Source: a virus
Lineage: Duplodnaviria; Caudoviricetes
DNA: 64,000 nt
IMG/VR virus record: IMGVR_UViG_3300033067_001119
Span: 1-64,000 of that record
Direction: 5' to 3' (one strand)
The notes beneath the pieces were generated by a model that saw nothing but the letters and a program-made list of their open reading frames with translations, did no database searches and was not told where the DNA came from. Every line of letters starts with the position of its first letter. The stretch's first letter is position 1. Of this stretch, positions 27,281 to 57,955 are shown in pieces. The translations under genes were made by a program, and so were the position numbers.

Positions 27281-27546
27281 CGATGGATCACCGACCTGCC
27301 GCCTCCGGGCGAGGTGCGCTCCAGCAGCGTCCGCTGGGCCACGCCGCAGCCGAGGTACATGCGGGAGGCGTCGGACCCGGCAAATGCCACCCCGAAGTCG
27401 ACAGGGCCCACCGCAACCAGCACCAGCGCCATGACGTCGCCGTTCTTGGCGCTCTCCAGCGCCCCCTCCAGCAGCTCGATGCACTGCTTCTGAGCCGGGC
27501 TCATGACGGCCTCGCCGTTGGGCTTTAGCAGGGTCGGCTTAGCCAT
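27277..27546 (-). CDS. Hypothetical protein
   Basis: 89 aa, coupled ORF. Confidence 0.6.
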   Translation of the reverse strand: MAKPTLLKPNGEAVMSPAQKQCIELLEGALESAKNGDVMALVLVAVGPVDFGVAFAGSDASRMYLGCGVAQRTLLERTSPGGGRSVIHR

Positions 27547-27949
27547 TCTCTTCCTCCATCATCCGCGTCAGCTGACGCTTGGTTGCATTCGGGAGCTTGT
27601 AGCCGCGCCCCCAGAGCGTTTCAATGTCCATCCCGCGTGGCTTCAGGAGCTTGCGCAGGCGGCATACCACCACAGCGACAACCTCCGGAGCTGGCGGGTT
27701 GTTGGCGTTGTCGGAATACAGCGCCAGCATCATCGATTCCTTGGTCGCCTCCGGGACGCGAATCAGGTGCGACAGCACCTTGGCCTCCAGCGGTCGCAGC
27801 CCGAGGCTCTTCGGCACCGTCGCGGGCACGCCAATGACCCTCTCCAGCTGCCGGAGGCGCTCCCGCAGCATGTCGACCTCGTCGCGCAACTGGCGCTCTG
27901 TGGCTTCCATCATTTGCACGGCCATACCGGGAGATCGCCGAAGAACCAC
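27539..27949 (-). CDS. Coiled-coil + OmpR/CtrA-type winged-helix DNA-binding protein
   Basis: VVVCRLRKLL...IETLWGRGYKL; no receiver domain. Confidence 0.8.
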   Translation of the reverse strand: MVLRRSPGMAVQMMEATERQLRDEVDMLRERLRQLERVIGVPATVPKSLGLRPLEAKVLSHLIRVPEATKESMMLALYSDNANNPPAPEVVAVVVCRLRKLLKPRGMDIETLWGRGYKLPNATKRQLTRMMEEENG

Positions 27950-28092
27950 GCCACCAGAGCCAGCAGCGCCGCCATCAGGATGAAGCCGTCATACAGGCGC
28001 TCGAACGGATGATCCTCCGGCTGGTGCTCCATCACGCGTCCCAGCGTGAGGCCTATGATAGCGCCAGTGGCGAGCGGCATTATGAACTGCAC
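27910..28092 (-). CDS. Small membrane protein
   Basis: Two hydrophobic segments. Confidence 0.45.
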   Translation of the reverse strand: MQFIMPLATGAIIGLTLGRVMEHQPEDHPFERLYDGFILMAALLALVAWFFGDLPVWPCK

Positions 28093-28367
28093 TTTGCCCT
28101 CGCGATCTTGTCGCTGTTGCGCTTTTGAGCCGTGAGGTTCACGCCGCCAACATCAGGACGAACAGTCACCACGGTGTTTCCGCTGATCTCGAAGCGGACG
28201 CCCTCCGAGCGGAGCGTGACAGCCCCGTAGGCTGCTGGCCATGCACACAGATCAGCGATGTGGCTGCGGACGATCTCGACGTTGAGGCCCATGGCCCGTT
28301 CCATGTAGCGCAAAACGGCGTGGTCGCTTACTCGAACAGGCTCCTTGGAAAGTGATGCAATCTTCAT
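28080..28367 (-). CDS. Conserved phage hypothetical protein
   Basis: VSDHAVLRYMER motif. Confidence 0.65.
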   Translation of the reverse strand: MKIASLSKEPVRVSDHAVLRYMERAMGLNVEIVRSHIADLCAWPAAYGAVTLRSEGVRFEISGNTVVTVRPDVGGVNLTAQKRNSDKIARAKCSS

Positions 28368-28447: not shown

Positions 28448-28654
28448 TTAGGCGGCCTCGTATCGTTTGGACGATTTGTTGTATTCGATAGCGTTCGGGT
28501 GTGCGGCCTGGAACATCGCGAGGTCGGCGGATGCCTGTGGCGTTGAGATGCCGAACTTCCGCTCTATGTGCTCCCGGTTGATAAAGCCAAACACGCGGAC
28601 GGTCTCGCCGATCCACTCCTGACGCTGCCGGACGAACCAATTGCACTCGCTCAC
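28448..28654 (-). CDS. Stand-alone CapW/BrxR-like winged-helix domain
   Basis: INREHIERKFGISTPQASADL...NAIEYNKSSKRY; AGGAG RBS. Confidence 0.75.
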   Translation of the reverse strand: MSECNWFVRQRQEWIGETVRVFGFINREHIERKFGISTPQASADLAMFQAAHPNAIEYNKSSKRYEAA

Positions 28655-28681
28655 GCCAGAATCTCCTCTGCGCGGCAGCCG

Positions 28682-28807
28682 GCCAGGTTCCCGGATGGAA
28701 CGCTTGAACGCATAGACGCAGCCTTAGAGGATGGCGAGAAACGGTCGGATCTCGTCCGGGAAGCCGTAGAGAGAGAGCTAAAACGGCGAGAACGACTCAC
28801 GCGCTAA
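28682..28807 (+). pseudogene. Ribbon-helix-helix gene remnant lacking its start
   Basis: ARFPDGTLERIDAAL...RSDLVREAVERELKRRE; no plausible nearby start. Confidence 0.5.
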
Positions 28808-28979
28808 CCTTTCCCTTCCTTGCCGCATGTGCGGGGCTCCCACCCGCTGCGACGGTTGCCTTCTGCCTTGGCAGAATCTCGCCGTCTCTTTCGGATCAGA
28901 GCGTTTCGTCGTCCGACCGACGCCCGGTGCCTACGCGCAGGCATTCGGGGACTTCAAACCTTTTCCTTCTGCGCCGTGA

Positions 28980-29255
28980 CTAAAAGCTACCGTCCAATGC
29001 CCGTTCAACGCGCTTTAGATAGCCAAGGAACATCTGCTCGACTGGCGTTATGTCCTTGTTCTTGAGGTCAACAATCGCCCTACGGGTCTCCTCGTAGACG
29101 GCGGCCCGCCAACAGTGACTTGTAGCGAACTTGCGGGTGCAGGGGACCGGAGCATCGTCCGGGTGGCATGTGCATGTGCGGCTGTCCGCTTTGGCTTCCT
29201 TGGCTTGATCCGGCCGGGGGCCAGAACCATCCATTTCGCCCGCATAATGTCCCAT
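28980..29255 (-). CDS. Hypothetical accessory protein
   Basis: TAATG coupling; CTCH motif. Confidence 0.55.
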   Translation of the reverse strand: MGHYAGEMDGSGPRPDQAKEAKADSRTCTCHPDDAPVPCTRKFATSHCWRAAVYEETRRAIVDLKNKDITPVEQMFLGYLKRVERALDGSF

Positions 29256-29440
29256 TAAACCTTTTCCTTCTGCGGTGGCTGGGCGCATGGCTCGATACCC
29301 CAGACCTTCAGGCAGTGCTCCAGCGGGTAGTAATACTCCAGCTTCATCTTGGCCTCATCGACCGCTCCGGCGCGATGCAGTGTTCTGAGGTAGCTCTTAA
29401 CTGCCCACCAGATGTCGGCATCGACCTCGACATTTGCCAT
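29255..29440 (-). CDS. Hypothetical accessory protein
   Basis: Coupled small ORF. Confidence 0.5.
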   Translation of the reverse strand: MANVEVDADIWWAVKSYLRTLHRAGAVDEAKMKLEYYYPLEHCLKVWGIEPCAQPPQKEKV

Positions 29441-30552: not shown

Positions 30553-30617
30553 GAGCCCCAATGGCTCGACCCGCACCTTATCGCACATCCCGGAGCGCCG
30601 GTCAACAGGATGTTTAC
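30553..30617 (-). promoter_or_regulatory. Repeated operator/promoter/hairpin element, copy 1
   Basis: GTAAAC-N5-GTTGAC, 33 nt, then GAGCCATTGGGGCTC. Confidence 0.85.
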
Positions 30618-33121
30618 GCTGCCCTCCGCTTCCGTGCCCCCGGGTACAGGTTCTTCGGCACCGGCTTGTGCTTGGCGCGCTCGGTCTCCTCGTAGCGGAT
30701 TTCGCTGTCGTTGCGCAGCAGGCCGAGGTCCCGCAGGTGCTTGATGCCCTGCGTCATGGCGTCCGTCAGATCGTCGTGCTTGCCCTTGGGGAAGATCGCC
30801 ATTTCGTCGATCAGGTCCTGCCCCCACTGCCGGAGCGGAAAGGGGATGTAGACCAGCTCTTGGCTGAACGCTGGCTGCACCGACTGCGCCCGCGCCCACT
30901 TGTCGCCCCTGGGCTCGATCAGCTGCACTGCCCAGCCTGCGTGCGGGTGCGAATTGGCCAACGACTGTGCGGCCGAGATGCCCGCCGACTTGTTCTCGAT
31001 CAGGAGCCGATCCGCCTTGCGCCGGGTGCAGGTGTCGGCCAGCCACTCCACAAGCCCCCAGCTGCGCATCTGGCGCTCGCGGAACGCAATCGCCTTCTCG
31101 CCCGGCTGCAGGGTGATCTTGGGCCCCGAGAACTTCAGGATGCGCCGCCACGCCTCGATCACCATGACGCGATTGTAGCCCTCCTCGTTCTGGAAGATGC
31201 CAAGGCAGACCGCCGCGCTCGGGTCGCTGTTCTCCTTCTGCCCGTAGGCCGAATCAACCGACACCACGACGTAGCTGAAGATCGGGAATTTGCCGTCTGC
31301 CGGGCTCCACGGCTGCCACCACTCGCGCTCGAAGATCGAGCCGCCGCGGGTCTCTGGCGTCTGCTGGTACTGGGAGTTGGACGATGCTAGCCCCCAGACC
31401 ACATAATTGCCGGTCGTGGTGGTTAGGCCGTAGACCTCCTCAGTCGCGTCCGGCTCAATCGATATTACCCGCTCCCGGCCGGTGAACATGCGCGAGTTGA
31501 TCGCACTCTCGATGATCCGGTCGCGCCATTTTGTGGGCTGCACCTGATGCAGAAAACGCTGATACAGAGACAACATGGAAGACCGGCCAGTTGGGCCAGC
31601 TTTGAGCCAATAGGAACGCACCGGCGCATGCCCTTTTGCCCTCTGCCGGTGGCGCATCCCATAATCGAGCCCCAACAGGCTCAAATTAGCCTCCAGCTTC
31701 TCGCACAGGGGCAAATTCTTGCCTGCAGACTGGGTAAATGAGATCAGAGCGCTGGCGCTATTATGTTCGCGGCGCAGGTTGAGAGAAACGGTACCCTCAC
31801 CATCAAAGAACCCAGCCAACCAACCTGCCGCCCGAACCTCGTCTGGGGCCAGCTGCGGTATTGCTGGCGGGCATACTCGACGCAACTCACCGCCAATCCA
31901 TGCTGGGGCATAGGGGGGATGAGCGGCATCATTGCGCCCGGTCCACCACCTATGGTTCGCGGTGCAGCGGATTGTTCGACCGCTGTCGAATGTGACCTTG
32001 ACGCAAGGCTGGAGTGATTTGTGGACATCCAGAACGGTGGCCTCTTGGTATCGAGCGCGCCGCCTGTTGTCACCGATCCTGAACCCCACAATCTTGTCCC
32101 CCGGCACAACGGTGCCGATGGGCCTCATTGACAGATCGGCCATCAAGATCGGGGCTTCATACGGGTTGCAAGCCCAAGCGAACTTGCTCGCGTCGGACTT
32201 CATGGTCGGGATGATGTGCTCCGGGAAGCGCTCCGGCCACGCCAGCTCACCGTCGCAGTCCTGCGGGCGTGGCTTCCAGCGGGGATCGACCCAGCCGATG
32301 CTGGTGGCGAGCGGCTGCCCGTTGTCGTCGGCCTGCCAGACGTACTCCATCGGGATCAGCAGGTGGCACCAGCCATCCATCGAGCTAATGATCTCGCCGG
32401 AGACGTCCTCCTCGTTCACCCGCTGCATGATGACGACCTTCGCGCCGGTCTCCATGTTGTTGAGGCGGGACGACAGTGATTCGCGGAACCAGCGGATGGT
32501 CTCCTGCCGGACTGCCTTGGACTCCGATTCCTTGACGTTGTGCGGGTCGTCGATGATGGCCCGGTCGCCGCGCTCGCCGGTGCCGACGCCGCCAACCGAG
32601 GAGGCCAGCTTCCAGCCGTGCCGCATGTTGGTGACCTTGGTCTCGCCGACCTTCCGCAGCTGGACGCGGTCGCCGTACATTTCCTGATATTCCGGGCAGG
32701 TCAGCAGGTCCTTGAAGCGACCGTTGTCGCGCTCCGTCAGCATCGAGGAGTAGCTGAAGGTCACATAGCGGATGTGAGGCTTGTTCATCGGGCCCCACTC
32801 CCACGCGGGCCAGAAGACGTCCGTCAGCAGGCTCTTCATGAAGCCCGGCGGGACGTTGATCAGGAGCTTGGTGATCTCCCCGAAGGTGACCGCCTCAAGG
32901 TGCTCGCAGATCGCTTCCAGAGCCCACCCATCGACAAACTTGGTCCCCGGCTCCAGAACTGACCAGAAGTAGCGGACGAACTCCAGCAGGCCTCCCCGCC
33001 ATACGCCATCGGCATCCCGGTATCCGCGCCGCTGCTGCAGCTTCTTGGCCTGCCGACGACGCATCACGGCCATCAGCTTGGCAAACTCGGCGTGCTCAGG
33101 CTGGGAGAGCGGCTGATTCAC
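30614..33121 (-). CDS. terL: Terminase large subunit (intein-containing)
   Basis: LLINVPPGFMKS, IIDDPHN, VVSVDSAY, IENKSAG, HDDLTDA. Confidence 0.95.
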   Translation of the reverse strand: MNQPLSQPEHAEFAKLMAVMRRRQAKKLQQRRGYRDADGVWRGGLLEFVRYFWSVLEPGTKFVDGWALEAICEHLEAVTFGEITKLLINVPPGFMKSLLTDVFWPAWEWGPMNKPHIRYVTFSYSSMLTERDNGRFKDLLTCPEYQEMYGDRVQLRKVGETKVTNMRHGWKLASSVGGVGTGERGDRAIIDDPHNVKESESKAVRQETIRWFRESLSSRLNNMETGAKVVIMQRVNEEDVSGEIISSMDGWCHLLIPMEYVWQADDNGQPLATSIGWVDPRWKPRPQDCDGELAWPERFPEHIIPTMKSDASKFAWACNPYEAPILMADLSMRPIGTVVPGDKIVGFRIGDNRRRARYQEATVLDVHKSLQPCVKVTFDSGRTIRCTANHRWWTGRNDAAHPPYAPAWIGGELRRVCPPAIPQLAPDEVRAAGWLAGFFDGEGTVSLNLRREHNSASALISFTQSAGKNLPLCEKLEANLSLLGLDYGMRHRQRAKGHAPVRSYWLKAGPTGRSSMLSLYQRFLHQVQPTKWRDRIIESAINSRMFTGRERVISIEPDATEEVYGLTTTTGNYVVWGLASSNSQYQQTPETRGGSIFEREWWQPWSPADGKFPIFSYVVVSVDSAYGQKENSDPSAAVCLGIFQNEEGYNRVMVIEAWRRILKFSGPKITLQPGEKAIAFRERQMRSWGLVEWLADTCTRRKADRLLIENKSAGISAAQSLANSHPHAGWAVQLIEPRGDKWARAQSVQPAFSQELVYIPFPLRQWGQDLIDEMAIFPKGKHDDLTDAMTQGIKHLRDLGLLRNDSEIRYEETERAKHKPVPKNLYPGARKRRAA
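31376..32170 (-). mobile_element. 265-aa intein with LAGLIDADG endonuclease in terL
   Basis: FAWA|CNPYEAPILMAD...CTANHRW...GWLAGFFDGEG...VYGLTTTTGNYVVWGLASSN|SQYQQ. Confidence 0.9.
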
Positions 33122-45897: not shown

Positions 45898-46110
45898 TTA
45901 GCCGAACAGGGACGGCAGCAGCTTGGCCTTGGATATACCGGTCGCCTTGCTCAGCGCCAGCACATACCGGGTCGGAACCGCCTTCCAGCGGGTGACCGCC
46001 TGCTTGGAGATGCCGACCATCTCGCCCAGTTGCTTCTTGGTGTACCCGTGGCCGTCAGGCTTTGGGGCAATAAGCCGCTCGAAGGCGGCCTCGTCAGTCA
46101 GTTTTGCCAT
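45898..46110 (-). CDS. cro: Cro-like HTH repressor
   Basis: KKQLGEMVGISKQAVTRWKAVP; 70 aa; at the divergent promoter. Confidence 0.85.
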   Translation of the reverse strand: MAKLTDEAAFERLIAPKPDGHGYTKKQLGEMVGISKQAVTRWKAVPTRYVLALSKATGISKAKLLPSLFG

Positions 46111-46140: not shown

Positions 46141-46218
46141 GTCAACTGAATGTATACTGGCGTTGACAACACCATCAGGGTGGAGTACACACGTTGTTGA
46201 CCGGAGCCATGGGGGCTC
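46141..46218. promoter_or_regulatory. Divergent control region with two operators and hairpin copy 4
   Basis: GTCAAC-N5-GTATAC (46141-57), TTGACA (46163), GTACAC-N5-GTTGAC (46185-201), GAGCCATGGGGGCTC (46204-18). Confidence 0.8.
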
Positions 46219-53629: not shown

Positions 53630-53703
53630 TGGTACTGCCTGATGGTTACGCTCCATCGTGTCGCGGTCCACAGCCGCGCGCTCTGCTATTGAGCTAAGGC
53701 AGC
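53630..53703 (-). tRNA. trnH: tRNA-His(GTG), G1:U72/A73, T-loop AGCGTAA
   Basis: Cloverleaf; encoded CCA. Confidence 0.85.
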
Positions 53704-53709
53704 ATGAAA

Positions 53710-53780
53710 TGGTCCCGAAGCCCTGTGTCGATCAGGGCTGGCAGCCGTATGAAAGCTGCGTCCTCGCCGGAGGCATCGGG
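53710..53780 (-). tRNA. tRNA-Met/Ile2(CAT), T-loop ATCGACA
   Basis: Cloverleaf; loop TTCATAC. Confidence 0.75.
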
Positions 53781-53781
53781 A

Positions 53782-53852
53782 TGGCAGCGGCACACAGTGT
53801 CGAACTGTGCTCTCAGGTTTCAAAGACCCAATCCCTCACCGGAGGTGCCGCA
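53782..53852 (-). tRNA. trnQ: tRNA-Gln(TTG)
   Basis: Cloverleaf; loop CTTTGAA. Confidence 0.8.
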
Positions 53853-53857
53853 TCAAA

Positions 53858-53933
53858 TGGTAGAGCCTGCGGGTGCTGCCCCCGCTTCCCCGCTTTGAAA
53901 GAGCAGGCATCCTAGCTGGTAGACGAAGGCTCC
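53858..53933 (-). tRNA. trnE: tRNA-Glu(TTC), T-loop GGCAGCA
   Basis: Cloverleaf; loop CTTTCAA. Confidence 0.8.
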
Positions 53934-53934
53934 G

Positions 53935-54009
53935 TGGAGCAGGCAGGGAGAATCGAACTCCCTTGGAACGCCTTGGAAGGGCGACGACCAGCCAATGGCC
54001 CATACCTGC
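53935..54009 (-). tRNA. trnG: tRNA-Gly(TCC)
   Basis: Canonical cloverleaf; U73. Confidence 0.9.
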
Positions 54010-54050
54010 GTAATTCGCAATTCGCCGCGAATTACGGCGAATTGCGGAAT

Positions 54051-54138
54051 TGGCGGAAGGCCGGAGACACGATCACCACACCGTTGCCAGTGCCATGCCC
54101 TTAGCAGGGGCCGCCAGCGCCTCGCTGGTTGACCTTCC
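54051..54138 (-). tRNA. trnS: tRNA-Ser(GCT) with 8/4 architecture
   Basis: 8-bp acceptor, 4-bp T-stem, 6-bp D-stem, long variable arm, G73. Confidence 0.8.
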
Positions 54139-54140
54139 AT

Positions 54141-54217
54141 TGGTGCCCACGGGAAGATTCGAACTCCCCTAGTCCAGCTACGGTACCCCGCTTAGGAGGC
54201 GGGGCCGGTACGTGGGC
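54141..54217 (-). tRNA. D-armless tRNA-like gene, anticodon CCT (Arg)
   Basis: 7-bp acceptor, 6-nt linker, 6-bp anticodon stem, 17-nt variable region, TTCGAAT loop. Confidence 0.6.
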
Positions 54218-54221
54218 AAAT

Positions 54222-54298
54222 TGGAGCCCCGAGGGTGAGTCGAACACCCGCCGGATCGCGTTTAGAAGACGCGCGCTCTTCCGCTGAGCTATCGGGGC
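54222..54298 (-). tRNA. trnR: tRNA-Arg(TCT)
   Basis: Canonical cloverleaf. Confidence 0.9.
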
Positions 54299-54300
54299 AT

Positions 54301-54374
54301 TGGAGATGCGAGCGCGAGTCGAACGCGCTTCCTCGGCTTTGCAGGCCGGTCCATGGCCGTTCTGGCATCGCATC
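54301..54374 (-). tRNA. trnC: tRNA-Cys(GCA)
   Basis: Cloverleaf; U73. Confidence 0.9.
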
Positions 54375-54378
54375 ATGT

Positions 54379-54448
54379 TGGCTGCGGACGAGGGTCTCGA
54401 ACCCGCTTCACCCGGTTCAGAGCCGGGCTTACTCCCTGAGTATCCGCA
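54379..54448 (-). tRNA. trnQ: tRNA-Gln(CTG)
   Basis: U1:A72; short D-arm. Confidence 0.8.
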
Positions 54449-54451
54449 AAA

Positions 54452-54528
54452 TGGTCTGGATGGCAGGCTTCGATCCTGCGGCCCCTCGCTTCCGAAGCGA
54501 GTGCTCTTCCGGGCTGAGCTACATCCAG
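54452..54528 (-). tRNA. trnP: tRNA-Pro(CGG), T-loop ATCGAAG
   Basis: C1:G72, A73. Confidence 0.9.
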
Positions 54529-54533
54529 ATGAA

Positions 54534-54610
54534 TGGTGATCCCGCGAGGATTCGAACCCCGACCTCCCAGATTCGTAGTCTGGCGCATTATCCAGTTGTG
54601 CTACGGGACC
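54534..54610 (-). tRNA. trnR: tRNA-Arg(ACG)
   Basis: Canonical cloverleaf. Confidence 0.9.
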
Positions 54611-54614
54611 GTTT

Positions 54615-54689
54615 TGGCGCTGCATGGGAGAATTGAACTCCCGTTCTCCGCGTGAGAGGCGGGCATCCTGACCACTAGACGAATGCAGC
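54615..54689 (-). tRNA. trnE: tRNA-Glu(CTC)
   Basis: Canonical cloverleaf. Confidence 0.9.
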
Positions 54690-54694
54690 ATGAT

Positions 54695-54769
54695 TGGCTC
54701 TGCTCCGAGGAATCGAACCTCGCTCGCATGCGTTAACAGCGCAGCCGCACACCTTGTGCGTTGAGCAGA
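54695..54769 (-). tRNA. trnN: tRNA-Asn(GTT)
   Basis: U1:A72, G73. Confidence 0.9.
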
Positions 54770-54776
54770 ACAGAGA

Positions 54777-54848
54777 TGGTGGAGTGACGGAGAGTTGAAC
54801 TCCGGACGGCAATCTTGCAAGGATCGCCTGCAGCCCGCTGCTCACCCC
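54777..54848 (-). tRNA. trnA: tRNA-Ala(TGC)
   Basis: G3:U70 present; reduced D-arm. Confidence 0.8.
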
Positions 54849-54852
54849 ATGT

Positions 54853-54928
54853 TGGTGCCCTGCGCCTGATTCGAACAGGCCTCCTGCGCTCTTCAGGCGC
54901 GTGCAATCACCAGATTTGCTAACAGGGC
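54853..54928 (-). tRNA. trnF: tRNA-Phe(GAA)
   Basis: Canonical cloverleaf. Confidence 0.9.
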
Positions 54929-54957
54929 GAATTGTGGGATTTTCCCACAATTCAAAT

Positions 54958-55031
54958 TGGAGCGGCCAGTCGGTTACGATCCGACGTCTCATCGTTGGCA
55001 ACGATGAACTCTGCCATTGAGCTATGGCCGC
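54958..55031 (-). tRNA. trnG: tRNA-Gly(GCC), T-loop ATCGTAA
   Basis: Cloverleaf; U73. Confidence 0.85.
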
Positions 55032-55032
55032 G

Positions 55033-55117
55033 TGGTGGGTAACCCGTGAATCGAACACGGCATGCCCGAAGGCGCAGCTTTTACAGAGCCGCTCAGTCAC
55101 CAGACTTGGCGTTACCC
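55033..55117 (-). tRNA. trnY: tRNA-Tyr(GTA)
   Basis: Long variable arm GCC-TTCG-GGC. Confidence 0.9.
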
Positions 55118-55122
55118 GAGAT

Positions 55123-55197
55123 TGGTTGCGGGAAAGGGACTTGCACCCCTGACCTCCGAGTTATGAGCCCGGCGAGCTGCTACTGCTCCACCCCGCG
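55123..55197 (-). tRNA. trnfM: Initiator-type tRNA-fMet(CAT), T-loop TGCAAGT
   Basis: C1xA72 mismatch; GGG in anticodon stem. Confidence 0.85.
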
Positions 55198-55201
55198 ATA
55201 A

Positions 55202-55277
55202 TGGTGCGCCGCTTGAACTCGGTCGCGCATCGACAAGTACATCCGTTGTTCGATGGAATTAGCGCTTGTAGCACATC
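55202..55277 (-). ncRNA. CCA-ending tRNA-like element of unassigned identity
   Basis: GTTCAA and CCA end; CATCG/CGATG stem; no cloverleaf. Confidence 0.35.
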
Positions 55278-55368
55278 TGGCGGGCGAGGGGTAGTAACGC
55301 TCTCCATGCCCGGTGGGCACCTTTGGTTTTCGAGACCAAGCTGGGGACTTCCCGCAGTTCTCTCGCCC
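55278..55368 (-). tRNA. trnS: tRNA-Ser(CGA) with extended acceptor and long D-stem
   Basis: 8-9 bp acceptor, T-loop AGCGTTA, long variable arm, G73. Confidence 0.7.
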
Positions 55369-55372
55369 GTGT

Positions 55373-55448
55373 TGGTGGTCCCCCGGTGATTCGAACACCG
55401 TGTCTCCCGCTTCGGAGGCGGGTGCCTTGTCCATCCGGCTCGGGGACC
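55373..55448 (-). tRNA. trnR: tRNA-Arg(CCG)
   Basis: Canonical cloverleaf. Confidence 0.9.
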
Positions 55449-55449
55449 G

Positions 55450-55827
55450 TTACTTCCTGCCCTTGCGGCGCACGTTGCCGCGGGCGTCGTAGTTGCCGGT
55501 CGGCCAGTAGCGGTTCATCTTCACCTCGCCGACCAGGCCGTCGTCGGTGAATACCGCCGGGCCCTTCAGCGTCTTGCCGTCGACCGCCTGCTCGAACGCA
55601 AGGTAGCTTCCGCCCGCATCCGGGCTCGCTGGGTTGACGAAAAACAGATCGAGGTCCGTTGGCTCATCCAGCGGGACGGGCACTCCAGCAGCCTCGCAGG
55701 CCCGGTAAAGGGCATCCCTGTATTGCTGGATTACCGCCTGATGCATCCGCCGGTGCGGTGCGTCGTGTATCCAGAGACGGAGCAGCGCCGGGAAGCGCTG
55801 GCCGTCATACTGTACCTTGATCTTCAT
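55450..55827 (-). CDS. Divergent RusA-like protein inside tRNA array
   Basis: LDLFFVNPASPDAGG...FEQAVDG...VFTDDGLV. Confidence 0.5.
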   Translation of the reverse strand: MKIKVQYDGQRFPALLRLWIHDAPHRRMHQAVIQQYRDALYRACEAAGVPVPLDEPTDLDLFFVNPASPDAGGSYLAFEQAVDGKTLKGPAVFTDDGLVGEVKMNRYWPTGNYDARGNVRRKGRK

Positions 55828-55837
55828 GGTGGGCCTT

Positions 55838-55903
55838 TGGTGGAAGCGGCGGGCTGGGTGAGCCCGCTAATCACTCTGTTATGAGCAGAGGGTCTCCGCT
55901 TTT
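55838..55903 (-). tRNA. D-armless tRNA-like remnant (CAT) overlapping the GIY-YIG 3' end
   Basis: CTCTG-CTCATAA-CAGAG arm, GCGGGC/GCCCGC T-like arm, CGCTTCC-A-CCA. Confidence 0.5.
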
Positions 55904-56404
55904 CGACTTCACTTCCCTCTGACGTTGCCACTGCAGGATCGCGGCTTGGCGCAGTCTCTCCCTATGCTCCGGCGATTTGGTGCGCCCCTTGTGGGCTAGG
56001 CCACCCTTTCGCCCGTTCTCACGAAGCTGCTCTTTGGCAAGAGAAAATATCCCAGTTCCACGATCTCGATTTGCGACCCCGCCCCGGCTTTGACTTTTGG
56101 ACGCGAATGCGCCCTTGCGGGCGTTCTCCGCGGTAAATCCACCAACACCACCGCGACGCATATTGTAGGTGCGCGACACACGGTAATCGGCGGTCAATTC
56201 CACTTCTTTTGCGTAAGCCTCAGCACTGGTGTCAAAAACGAACAACACGTCCTTGCGGAAGGAACGCTTGCCATGCTTCCGGATCGCAGCGCGGATAGCT
56301 CGACCACTCCCGAAGTATCCATCATTCGGATTGTCCGTCTTGTGGACACCGACGTAGGTCTTGCCGTTGGCCAGATTAGTGATGCGGTAGACGGTGAACA
56401 TCAC
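55871..56404 (-). CDS. GIY-YIG homing endonuclease with NUMOD3-like tail
   Basis: TVYRITNLANGKTYVG...YFGSG; HKGRTKSPEHRERL. Confidence 0.9.
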   Translation of the reverse strand: MMFTVYRITNLANGKTYVGVHKTDNPNDGYFGSGRAIRAAIRKHGKRSFRKDVLFVFDTSAEAYAKEVELTADYRVSRTYNMRRGGVGGFTAENARKGAFASKSQSRGGVANRDRGTGIFSLAKEQLRENGRKGGLAHKGRTKSPEHRERLRQAAILQWQRQREVKSKSGDPLLITE

Positions 56405-56447
56405 CGCACTATATCACAGGCCTTCCCATCTGGCTCAACGTGCGAAT

Positions 56448-56524
56448 TGGTCGGAGCGGCAGGATTTGAACCCGCGTATGCCTGCTCCCAAAGCAGGTGG
56501 TCGGCCAGACTGACCCACACTCCG
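56448..56524 (-). tRNA. trnP: tRNA-Pro(TGG)
   Basis: Canonical cloverleaf. Confidence 0.92.
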
Positions 56525-56629
56525 ATGTTCCCTCTCGTGGCGACGACGATGCGTCTTATCCGGCGCAGAAGTGTGGGACCTTGGTCACCACAGCGCTACC
56601 TCCAGTACGCCACGCCCCGGGGGACATGA
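56525..56629 (-). ncRNA. Unassigned ~105-nt structured RNA between tRNAs
   Basis: Nested stems CGTGGCG/CGCCACG, GCGC/GCGC, TGTGG/CCACA, GACC/GGTC. Confidence 0.4.
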
Positions 56630-56630
56630 T

Positions 56631-56705
56631 TGGCGATCCTGTCGGGTTACGATCCCGATTTGCTCCCGTGACAGGGGAGTAGCTTAGCCACTAGCTGACA
56701 GGACC
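56631..56705 (-). tRNA. trnD: tRNA-Asp(GTC), T-loop ATCGTAA
   Basis: Cloverleaf; G73. Confidence 0.88.
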
Positions 56706-56706
56706 T

Positions 56707-56782
56707 TGGTGTGCGTGGGGTGATTCGAACACCCGCTGTACAGGTTCTCGGCCTGCTCTCTCTGCCACTGGAGTACACGCAC
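56707..56782 (-). tRNA. trnL: tRNA-Leu(GAG), short variable loop, C33
   Basis: Cloverleaf; loop CCGAGAA. Confidence 0.8.
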
Positions 56783-56787
56783 ATTGT

Positions 56788-56863
56788 TGGTACACCCTCG
56801 GAGAATCGAACTCCGCCCTCATGGTTTAAGAGACCAGCGCACGAACCAACATGCTCAGGGTGT
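56788..56863 (-). tRNA. trnK: tRNA-Lys(CTT)
   Basis: Cloverleaf. Confidence 0.88.
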
Positions 56864-56868
56864 GTGAG

Positions 56869-56951
56869 TGGAGGACGTCGGAGGTTACGATCCTCATGCG
56901 ACGCGGTTTAAAAGACCGGCCCAAAGCCACTCTGGTTTACGCTCGACGTCC
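56869..56951 (-). tRNA. trnK: tRNA-Lys(TTT) with 8/4 architecture, U73
   Basis: GGACGTCG/CGACGTCC, GAGG/CCTC, 6-bp D-stem. Confidence 0.7.
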
Positions 56952-56956
56952 GTATC

Positions 56957-57160
56957 TCAGGACGCCGGTTTGCTGATGTTCTTCTCTTCGCACACCACGA
57001 TGGTGCCGGTGTCGCGGAAGTGATGCACCCAGCGTCGCCGCAGGCGCACGGGCACAAGCCCAAACTGGCAGTGGACGCATGGCGATGCTGCAGCCGCCCA
57101 TTCCTTCCATGCCTTCATCGAAGTCTCGACGAGAGGCCAGTCCGTTGCTGCCGTAGTCAT
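56957..57160 (-). CDS. Small Cys/His protein inside tRNA array
   Basis: CVHC...WVHH...C; AGGAG RBS. Confidence 0.5.
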   Translation of the reverse strand: MTTAATDWPLVETSMKAWKEWAAAASPCVHCQFGLVPVRLRRRWVHHFRDTGTIVVCEEKNISKPAS

Positions 57161-57173
57161 GGCGCTCTCCTGT

Positions 57174-57248
57174 TGGTGCTCGGAAGCGGCTTGCAACCGC
57201 CATGCGAGGCGTACGACGCGGCCTGCCCGCACCTTGCTAAGCCCGAGC
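57174..57248 (-). tRNA. Thr(CGT)-like tRNA with degenerate anticodon stem
   Basis: Good acceptor and T-stem, T-loop TTGCAAG, weak anticodon arm. Confidence 0.5.
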
Positions 57249-57252
57249 CTGT

Positions 57253-57326
57253 TGGTAGTCCCTGCTGGTTCTGCCCCAGCGTCGCACGGTTATCGGCCGC
57301 GCATTCTGCTATTGAACTAAGGGACC
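57253..57326 (-). tRNA. trnI: tRNA-Ile(GAT), C33, T-loop GGCAGAA
   Basis: Cloverleaf. Confidence 0.85.
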
Positions 57327-57330
57327 GTGA

Positions 57331-57405
57331 TGGTACGCGCTGCAGGTGCTGCCCCTGCCGCCTCCAGCGTGTCGAGCTGGCGATCTGCTGATGATCTAAG
57401 CGCGC
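57331..57405 (-). tRNA. trnV: tRNA-Val(GAC), C33, T-loop GGCAGCA
   Basis: Cloverleaf. Confidence 0.85.
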
Positions 57406-57410
57406 ATGAA

Positions 57411-57484
57411 TGGTAGTCCCTGACGGTACCTCCCCGCCTTCACCAGCGTGTAAAACTGGCGCATCAATTTAATGCTTAGGGACC
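57411..57484 (-). tRNA. trnV: tRNA-Val(TAC), T-loop GGAGGTA
   Basis: Cloverleaf. Confidence 0.8.
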
Positions 57485-57485
57485 A

Positions 57486-57562
57486 TGGTACCCGCGGCGT
57501 GATTTGAACACGCACTGTAACTTGTTTTGAGCAAGTGGCCTCTGCCGTTGGGCTACGCGGGC
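57486..57562 (-). tRNA. trnL: tRNA-Leu(CAA), short variable loop
   Basis: Cloverleaf; 6-nt variable region. Confidence 0.85.
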
Positions 57563-57566
57563 ATGG

Positions 57567-57643
57567 TGGTGTCCGCCCGGAGATTCGAACTCCGAACCTT
57601 CGCATTCTGAGTGCGACGCCTCTGCCAGTTGGGCTAGGCGGAC
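57567..57643 (-). tRNA. trnL: tRNA-Leu(CAG), short variable loop
   Basis: Cloverleaf; 5-nt variable region. Confidence 0.88.
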
Positions 57644-57644
57644 A

Positions 57645-57721
57645 TGGAGCCCGGCCGGGGTTACGATCCCCGTCCTCGCCCTTACCGGGGGCGTGTGCTG
57701 GCCATTGATCACTAGCCGGGC
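57645..57721 (-). tRNA. trnT: tRNA-Thr(GGT), C33, T-loop ATCGTAA
   Basis: Cloverleaf. Confidence 0.85.
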
Positions 57722-57802
57722 ATGTAGGCGGGAGCGTCCTAACCAACTAGACGAACAGGCCTGACGGCCCGTGGTGGATTCGAACCACCGTTTCTCCCTG
57801 CT
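57722..57802 (-). ncRNA. Circularly permuted, anticodon-less tRNA-like RNA (Asp/Glu-type body)
   Basis: 3' half (GGGAG-AAAC-GGTGG-TTCGAAT-CCACC-ACGGGCC-GTCA) precedes 5' half (GGCCTGT-TCGTCTAGTTGGTTAGGAC-G-CTCCC). Confidence 0.8.
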
Positions 57803-57877
57803 TGGAGCCCATGCCGATGCTCGAACTCGGCTCTCACCCTTACAAGGGGCGCGCGTCGCCATCTACGCTTCATGGGC
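57803..57877 (-). tRNA. trnT: tRNA-Thr(TGT)
   Basis: Cloverleaf. Confidence 0.88.
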
Positions 57878-57880
57878 AAA

Positions 57881-57955
57881 TGGTGCTGCCTCGGTGCCTC
57901 GAACACCGGTCACCGCTTTACGAGGGCGGCGCTCTTCCTGTTGAGCTAAGGCAGC
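57881..57955 (-). tRNA. trnT: tRNA-Thr(CGT)
   Basis: Canonical cloverleaf. Confidence 0.9.

Follow-up and report, generated by a model that had tools for sequence, protein, structure and literature searches.

WYL repressors of the CapW/BrxR type control many defence islands, DriD and PafBC are WYL regulators of DNA-damage-response genes, and small regulators with an HTH or a winged helix (wHTH) are common in the early regions of phages. CapW (PDB 7TB6, 7TB5, 9C5G) is a protein of about 290-300 aa in which an N-terminal winged helix precedes a linker and the WYL and WCX domains, and its gene is divergent from a defence operon; in the R. leguminosarum protein the wHTH domain is residues 1-70 (PMC11662680). 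DNA binding by S. maltophilia CapW is abolished by the substitution R32A and also by the triple mutant S42A/Q45A/S47A (PMC9122588). In the structure of Acinetobacter BrxR with DNA, the DNA is touched by S37-R38-Q39-Q40, K46, R47, K64, and Y66, with R38 serving as the main base reader (PMC9122589). When the wHTH domains of CapW are moved 13 Å apart, dsDNA binding is abolished (PMC11662680). The operators of CapW and BrxR vary from system to system (PMC9122601, PMC9122588), and WYL regulators also have DNA-damage responses under their control (PMC10853764, PMC12392091).

Recent work shows that inducing defence under CapW/BrxR control makes a difference when prophages are induced and when phages carry counter-defences. 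The CapW mutants S158E and R200A bind dsDNA, show no response to ssDNA, and weaken CBASS; with non-inducible WYL mutants of this kind, the protection that CBASS gives when a lambda prophage is induced falls strongly (PMC11662680). CapW-mediated induction is dispensable where cells are protected from lambda infecting lytically (PMC9122588). Once an infection has failed, BrxR-type derepression readies cells to overcome phage counter-defences (bioRxiv 10.1101/2025.11.13.688357). In the papers searched on BrxR, CapW, and WYL, we found no description of phage-encoded, stand-alone, or WYL-less forms. The WHD_BrxR domain itself is already known and is automatically labelled in databases; the form described here is sensor-less and borne by phages.

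The window, by which we mean the whole stretch of DNA analysed here, comprises the first 64,000 nucleotides of IMG/VR record IMGVR_UViG_3300033067_001119 (Caudoviricetes), a phage genome of 74,452 bp that CheckV rates as complete. The phage carries genes for portal and terminase, for lysis, and for replication and recombination, as well as a large array of tRNAs (23 tRNA genes in 4.3 kb, window positions 53630-57955, minus strand, by ARAGORN), and no tyrosine integrase is found in its 74,452 bp. Its 835-aa large terminase (30614-33121, minus strand) appears, as read from the translation, to contain an intein with a LAGLIDADG-like block. Between terminase and portal lies a cluster of small genes, and within it the gene that concerns us:

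28448..28654, minus strand: WHD_BrxR winged-helix gene, an ORF for a 68-aa stand-alone CapW/BrxR-type wHTH
28663..28668, minus strand: Shine-Dalgarno sequence GAGGAG, which precedes the GTG start by 8 nt in the minus-strand letters
28532..28546, minus strand: start of the recognition helix, codons 37-41 (S-T-P-Q-A), placed by ungapped alignment to 7tb6 and by conservation among homologs

The ORF is a real gene. It starts with the GTG at 28654, and the N-terminus of its product, M-S-E-C-N-W-F, agrees with that of its homologs. The next gene (28080..28367) follows its stop after only 80 nt, which leaves no space for a degraded downstream domain. No close inverted repeat lies upstream.

The same cluster holds several other features. 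Three genes downstream, at 27539-27949 (minus strand), a 136-aa protein has a Trans_reg_C winged helix of the OmpR/PhoB type (E 2.4e-8) but no receiver domain, making it a second sensor-less regulator in the cluster; two output-only DNA-binding domains in one group of small genes may constitute a theme. An antisense ORF (28568-28807, plus strand) encodes a small ribbon-helix-helix-like (RHH) protein, residues 34-74 of which match NCBIfam YlcI/YnfO (E 4e-9, above the cut-off) and also phrog_949. From its sole canonical start, a GTG at 28568, this ORF would overlap the first 87 nt of the opposite-strand wHTH gene, and its conserved core has neither an ATG nor a GTG nor a TTG nearby; in two of the recovered loci (L007 and L024), its homologs are on the opposite strand from the wHTH gene and 1.6-2.8 kb away. 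An exact 18-nt direct repeat, CGCAGAAGGAAAAGGTTT on the minus strand, occurs at 28956-28973 and 29257-29274, the copies being 301 nt apart and flanking one small gene, with a weaker third copy at 28805-28822. The ribosome site of an ATG at 29255 falls within the upstream copy, and this ATG is probably where the gene listed at 28980..29288 really begins; no gene follows the downstream copy. The repeat looks like a cassette junction left by insertion of the antisense RHH gene.

When the single 68-aa sequence was compared with PDB sequences by phmmer, the matches were CapW/BrxR N-terminal domains only (CapW 7tb5 at E 9e-5, CapW 9c5g and 7tb6 at 1.8e-4, BrxR 7qfz at 0.098). A profile of 42 homologs matched three CapW entries at ~1e-10 and BrxR at 0.03-0.15, which argues for a protein that is CapW-like rather than BREX-BrxR-like. 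Precomputed annotation labels the protein, and every close homolog, as PF26109 WHD_BrxR; searches of PHROGs, PADLOC, NCBIfam, and a copy of Pfam without PF26109 returned no match, and membership of PF26109 was judged through its PDB members, at the values just given for CapW (9e-5 with the single sequence and ~1e-10 with the profile). The alignment-based AlphaFold2 model, with a pLDDT of 94.6, has helices at residues 2-22 and 27-34, a recognition helix at 38-51, and wing strands at 56-59 and 64-67. In Foldseek, this predicted winged helix superposes on residues 1-70 of CapW/BrxR (rmsd 0.5-0.8 Å against CapW; TMq 0.82-0.89 against BrxR), and the next fold in rank is the SSV1 F-112 winged helix at TMq 0.63. 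DriD and PafBC are absent among both the sequence and the fold matches. The first-pass annotation had described the ORF as a stand-alone CapW/BrxR-type winged helix, a description borne out by the PDB sequence matches, the PF26109 label, and a TMq of 0.91-0.92 against CapW.

The alignment spans residues 9-71 of R. leguminosarum CapW, and the window protein stops 3 residues past its final wing strand, where the wHTH of that CapW gives way to the linker; the WYL, linker, and WCX parts are therefore truly absent. The linker and the WCX (BrxR_CTD) domain, present in the full-length comparators, are missing by length and by alignment, and no WYL domain (PF13280) occurs anywhere in the 74-kb phage genome. 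The same annotation had claimed that the sensor and the dimerisation region were lacking, and for a protein that ends at residue 68 both claims stand. A two-copy homodimer prediction scored 0.27 against a mark of 0.42, which counts neither for nor against dimerisation. The window protein is, in short, the N-terminal winged helix of CapW/BrxR regulators and nothing else.

Its identity to CapW is about 33-34%, and the recognition-helix motif S-[TVA]-P-Q-A-S is kept. In the ungapped alignment to 7tb6, residues R32, S42, Q45, and S47 of S. maltophilia CapW correspond to R27, S37, Q40, and S42 of the window protein; across the 42 homologs, each of the four is either invariant or conserved to 90% or more. 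The positions through which BrxR contacts DNA fall on S37-T38-P39-Q40, 46, 47, K63, and Y65. Of these, K63 and Y65 are near-invariant counterparts of BrxR K64 and Y66, and the wing contacts of BrxR (7T8K, 7T8L, 7QFZ) are thus kept along with the fold and the WHD_BrxR label. BrxR differs in its weaker sequence similarity, in the domains after the wHTH that the window protein is missing, and in its base-reading motif, which is S-R-Q-Q in BrxR but a CapW-like S-T-P-Q here. Window position 38 is the position of BrxR R38; among the short forms it is occupied by T, R, Q, S, I, K, or V, and the positions that vary within the phage short forms (38, 43, 46, and 47) are contact positions in BrxR. A fixed scaffold with variable residues at 38/43/46/47 is the pattern expected of a DNA-binding family with diversified specificity. 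Unlike CapW, the window family also has its own strongly conserved residues in helices 1 and 2 (E17, R20, H29, E31, and K33). The residue pattern from which the domain had originally been recognised holds in substance but not in every letter and spacing: H replaces D after the arginine, F replaces the first Y, and the part around P-N is present but shifted by one residue. It can be firmly stated that the window protein is a ligand-independent winged helix with an intact CapW-type DNA-binding face.

Proteins of this kind are numerous. A word-indexed search returned at least 267 homologs of 37-119 aa at E ≤ 1e-3. Close homologs measure about 66-80 aa, and the best 120 of the at least 267, which are 63-84% identical, nearly all end 2-5 residues past a K-R-Y-E-A motif. 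A search for longer homologs yielded only 14 (120-210 aa), with WYL in none. With E ≤ 1e-3 as the threshold, a profile search of the whole library gave 1374 representative clusters, 363 of which also pass ≤ 1e-10; among the best 150 of the 1374, almost every cluster is 57-145 aa, with WYL in none of those checked, and the few longer members carry unrelated additions (an R67-type DHFR-like domain, DUF551) and no WYL. Rare fusions of the short domain (P0172, P0275, and L007:3992-4285) have, respectively, an R67-type DHFR-like domain (271 aa), DUF551 (211 aa), and a Cys-rich C-terminal tail (97 aa). Over 27 loci, the median pN is 0.25 against a pS of 0.71, with synonymous sites saturated, and dN/dS is ~0.2 where computable. 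ESM Atlas clusters of 68-71 aa, mostly viral, carry WHD_BrxR in 96-98% of their members. Judged by these comparisons of sequence, the short-form family is real, length-constant, and under purifying selection. At the DNA level, megablast of the window region against 50,697 phage records found nothing similar. Cultured phages encode stand-alone WHD_BrxR-like proteins, all annotated as hypothetical: gp088 (75 aa) of Stenotrophomonas phage Sonora, a 97-aa protein of Pantoea phage LIET2, and gp285 (110 aa) of Yersinia phage fHe-Yen9-02, which are 24-38% identical to the window protein.

Relatives were recovered at 17 loci from IMG/VR and 8 bacterial loci, the latter mostly from Alphaproteobacteria. 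They sit in arrays of small co-directional genes, in the early or accessory regions of phages and prophages. In an Afipia MAG, the short-form gene is downstream of a cI-like repressor and ahead of Lar and an integrase; elsewhere it adjoins an integrase and a 3966-aa polyvalent (DarB-like) protein, or follows a divergent HTH pair, and one phage with a short form also encodes an Acb2/Tad1-type gene. Many homologs overlap the preceding gene by 4 nt, which implies that these lack a separate promoter. When the ORFs of 32 loci were all clustered, no conserved neighbour emerged (only shadow ORFs, and an RHH gene in three loci), and a dyad search of 28 loci found no shared palindrome. Given the lack of both, the short form looks like a self-sufficient mobile accessory gene with its target elsewhere. 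The window gene itself has no palindromic operator directly upstream, as Cro/Aca-like autoregulators do, and it does not adjoin a defence operon across a shared promoter that carries a palindromic operator; in this it differs from the divergent arrangement of CapW, being situated in a cluster of phage early genes. Cro, Aca, and SSV1 F-112 (PDB 2VQC) resemble the window protein as single-domain DNA binders of about 60-70 aa from phage or virus early regions, but they have no sequence relationship to it, and the Cro and Aca genes adjoin their own operators whereas none was found at the wHTH gene.

Transcription of the small-gene cluster can be related to a set of repeated signals in the window:

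30553..30617, minus strand: early-type promoter block, with a 17-bp operator (30601-30617), a TTGAC -35 element, and the hairpin GAGCCATTGGGGCTC (30553-30567)
30601, 40152, 41673, 46141, and 46185: 17-bp operators, from a motif count in the window
30553, 40104, 41623, and 46204: GAGCCATTGGGGCTC hairpins, each 33-36 nt after an operator

The operator, GTCAAC-N5-GT[TA]TAC, occurs five times in the window against 0.47 expected. Each of the five copies overlaps a TTGAC -35 element, and four of the five are then followed by the hairpin. The copies at 46141 and 46185 face each other next to a minus-strand gene for a Cro-like HTH protein (about 45901-46107); to one side they head a replication operon, and to the other a recombination operon of the Erf/RecE type. 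The operator at 30601, in a block of the same make-up, overlaps the stop codon of the terminase gene and heads the minus-strand small-gene cluster that includes the wHTH gene, which lies ~1.95 kb downstream of the promoter block with no convincing terminator in between. We infer that the wHTH gene is co-transcribed from this early-type promoter and is expressed early. A packaging role of the small-terminase-like kind, which had been weighed owing to the position of the gene between terminase and portal, is rejected in light of this promoter and of the early regions in which the homologs are found. Nor is the wHTH likely to bind the 17-bp operators of the window: none of the 48 other loci has the motif, which makes a widely conserved wHTH an unlikely binder, and the adjacent Cro-like protein is a simpler candidate. 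No second repeated palindrome or palindromic regulon occurs in the window.

Full-length forms occur in the likely host family, the one containing Bradyrhizobium. Of 151 genomes of this family, 23 match the short-form profile. Scores are 62-112 bits for the short forms in prophages; about 20 matches, at 39-60 bits, lie in frames of about 290-400 aa, so that full-length forms occur in about 14% of the 151 genomes. Among five genomes with a prophage-borne short form, a full-length partner is found in B. huanghuaihaiense only. That regulator has a WYL domain and, at 41% identity to the window protein over the wHTH, is the nearest host one examined; it is divergent from an operon with genes for a PD-(D/E)XK nuclease, for a UvrD-type helicase-nuclease, and for ZacA/ZacB as called by PADLOC, the whole region being L049:1351-11745. 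About 77 nt upstream of a conserved W-G-V-E motif near the N-terminus of the regulator, there is an AT-rich near-palindrome of 20 bp. This candidate operator of the Bradyrhizobium full-length regulator was not found in the window, and no candidate host operator was found to match the window protein.

The relation between short and full-length forms was also approached with a quick maximum-likelihood tree of the domain, which at 73 columns is poorly resolved and has one strongly supported branch (SH-aLRT 99). On it, the full-length sequences, nine in all, group with Sonora gp088 and with a relative of 177 aa. Outside this full-length clade, as sampled, are the window protein and the other short representatives, the window family being set apart by a long branch. 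Sonora gp088 (L001:2983-3210) matches CapW far more strongly (E 4.9e-15 and 3.7e-13) than the window protein, and it shares 54% identity with a full-length protein of WHD_BrxR-WYL-BrxR_CTD architecture (L050:6001-6879) that adjoins a CBASS-type operon with a Cap2-like E1/E2/JAB gene. Between gp088 and this CBASS-linked CapW, the recognition helix and wing are near-identical. With the window family outside the full-length clade and gp088 nested within it, phage short forms arose at least twice: the window family represents an old, large origin, and gp088 a younger capture from a CBASS regulator. Sonora gp088 is the best experimental handle for the idea of mimicry.

What might such a protein do? 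The window wHTH would bind dsDNA through its recognition helix and wing, with contacts from R27, S37, Q40, S42, K63, and Y65. Having no WYL/WCX module, its binding would not be switchable by the ssDNA signal that releases the full-length repressors. It would probably be made early in infection, from the early-type promoter, and would act in trans; as its targets we favour the operators of host CapW/BrxR-type repressors ahead of defence operons, where a non-inducible occupant would block the damage-triggered rise of defence expression. That this is a constitutive DNA-binding phage protein we consider very probable, and we infer that it binds DNA, is expressed early, and acts in trans. That the target is a host operator, and that the effect is directed against defence, is speculative, and the full statement, of a sensor-less wHTH that sits on host CapW/BrxR operators and holds defence off, is put forward tentatively, at clearly less than an even chance. 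More doubtful still is the wider proposition that phages have repeatedly captured the DNA-binding head of WYL repressors as a signal-blind lock that would keep CBASS, BREX, or other defence operons off while an infection or a prophage induction is under way.

The idea of silencing defence is plausible because the published non-inducible CapW mutants weaken defence, and the priming that follows BrxR-type derepression also makes it biologically sensible (bioRxiv 10.1101/2025.11.13.688357). S158E and R200A (PMC11662680) are functional analogues of a sensor-blind repressor, with the difference that they are full-length dimers on their cognate operator and the window protein is a lone domain. Since separation of the wHTH domains by 13 Å abolishes binding by CapW, a lone domain may bind weakly unless it self-associates; the invariant residues of helices 1-2 could, by conjecture, provide such self-association. 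Indirectly in favour of an anti-defence role, short forms sit in early or accessory parts of phage genomes with no operator close by, a second phage lineage (Sonora gp088) nests among full-length CapWs, and the likely host family does have full-length regulators beside defence-like operons. Against it count the variation of CapW/BrxR operators between systems, the lack of a match between the protein and any candidate host operator, the modest identity of the window family to the nearest host regulator examined (only 41%) and its long branch, the occurrence of a full-length regulator in about 14% of the likely host family and one of five short-form genomes, the absence of an integrase from this phage, and the dispensability of CapW induction against lytic lambda (PMC9122588).

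Several of these points would sit as well with an ordinary phage transcription factor, one that acts on the phage's own genes at an early-to-middle switch or a single promoter and has no link to defence. Small HTH or wHTH regulators are usual in phage early regions, and the wHTH gene stands in an operon under an early-type promoter. Positions 38, 43, 46, and 47 vary between phages as if each protein matched its own site, and the family is far from the full-length host regulators, with most of the lysogen genomes searched lacking a full-length partner. Against this, there is no inverted repeat upstream here or shared among the 28 loci, no second palindrome in the window, and no conserved neighbour to serve as the regulated gene; the one clear regulon, that of the 17-bp operators, adjoins the gene for the Cro-like HTH protein and does not occur in the other wHTH phages, and the temperate relatives already possess a separate cI/cro pair. 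Own-gene regulation is the main rival, and we place it only slightly below the anti-defence reading in probability. The same trans-acting, early, accessory features that suggest an anti-defence role could also belong to a DNA binder directed at other host targets, such as host promoters taken over early or DNA-damage-response genes, the latter being controlled by WYL regulators as well. The WHD_BrxR subtype, however, is documented specifically in defence regulators of the CapW/BrxR type, and neither DriD nor PafBC is among the sequence or fold matches; we regard a non-defence host target as improbable.

Two further readings fare worse. The protein could act as a decoy that docks on the WYL or linker surface of host CapW/BrxR, at the packing site of the partner wHTH, and the family-specific conservation of E17, R20, H29, E31, and K33 in helices 1-2 might be read in this way; but the DNA-contact residues are the most conserved part, which a pure decoy would not need, and disturbing the repressor is more likely to raise defence expression, at a cost to the phage. 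We regard a decoy as very improbable. A decayed remnant of a wHTH-WYL-WCX protein, or a chance ORF, was weighed only since the protein corresponds to the first 70 residues of the full-length form, and it is scarcely credible: hundreds of homologs share the same end boundary, WYL is missing from close relatives, the next gene begins just 80 nt past the stop, the gene is under purifying selection, and the fold is confidently predicted. Decay of a full-length gene is accordingly rejected, and where the first-pass annotation had allowed that homologs might reveal a decayed fragment, they reveal instead a large, length-constant family under purifying selection.

Should the wHTH regulate phage genes instead, it would be an ordinary small regulator with an interesting ancestry. 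The anti-defence reading, if true, would describe a strategy that acts on the transcriptional control of immunity and not on its effectors. The idea is directly testable: the cultured phages Sonora, LIET2, and fHe-Yen9-02 carry related genes, and S. maltophilia CapW is an established model. A large, mainly viral family that consists of the repressor's DNA-binding domain alone is an obvious candidate for a countermeasure at the regulatory layer, and its wHTH may let the phage hold defence operons off.
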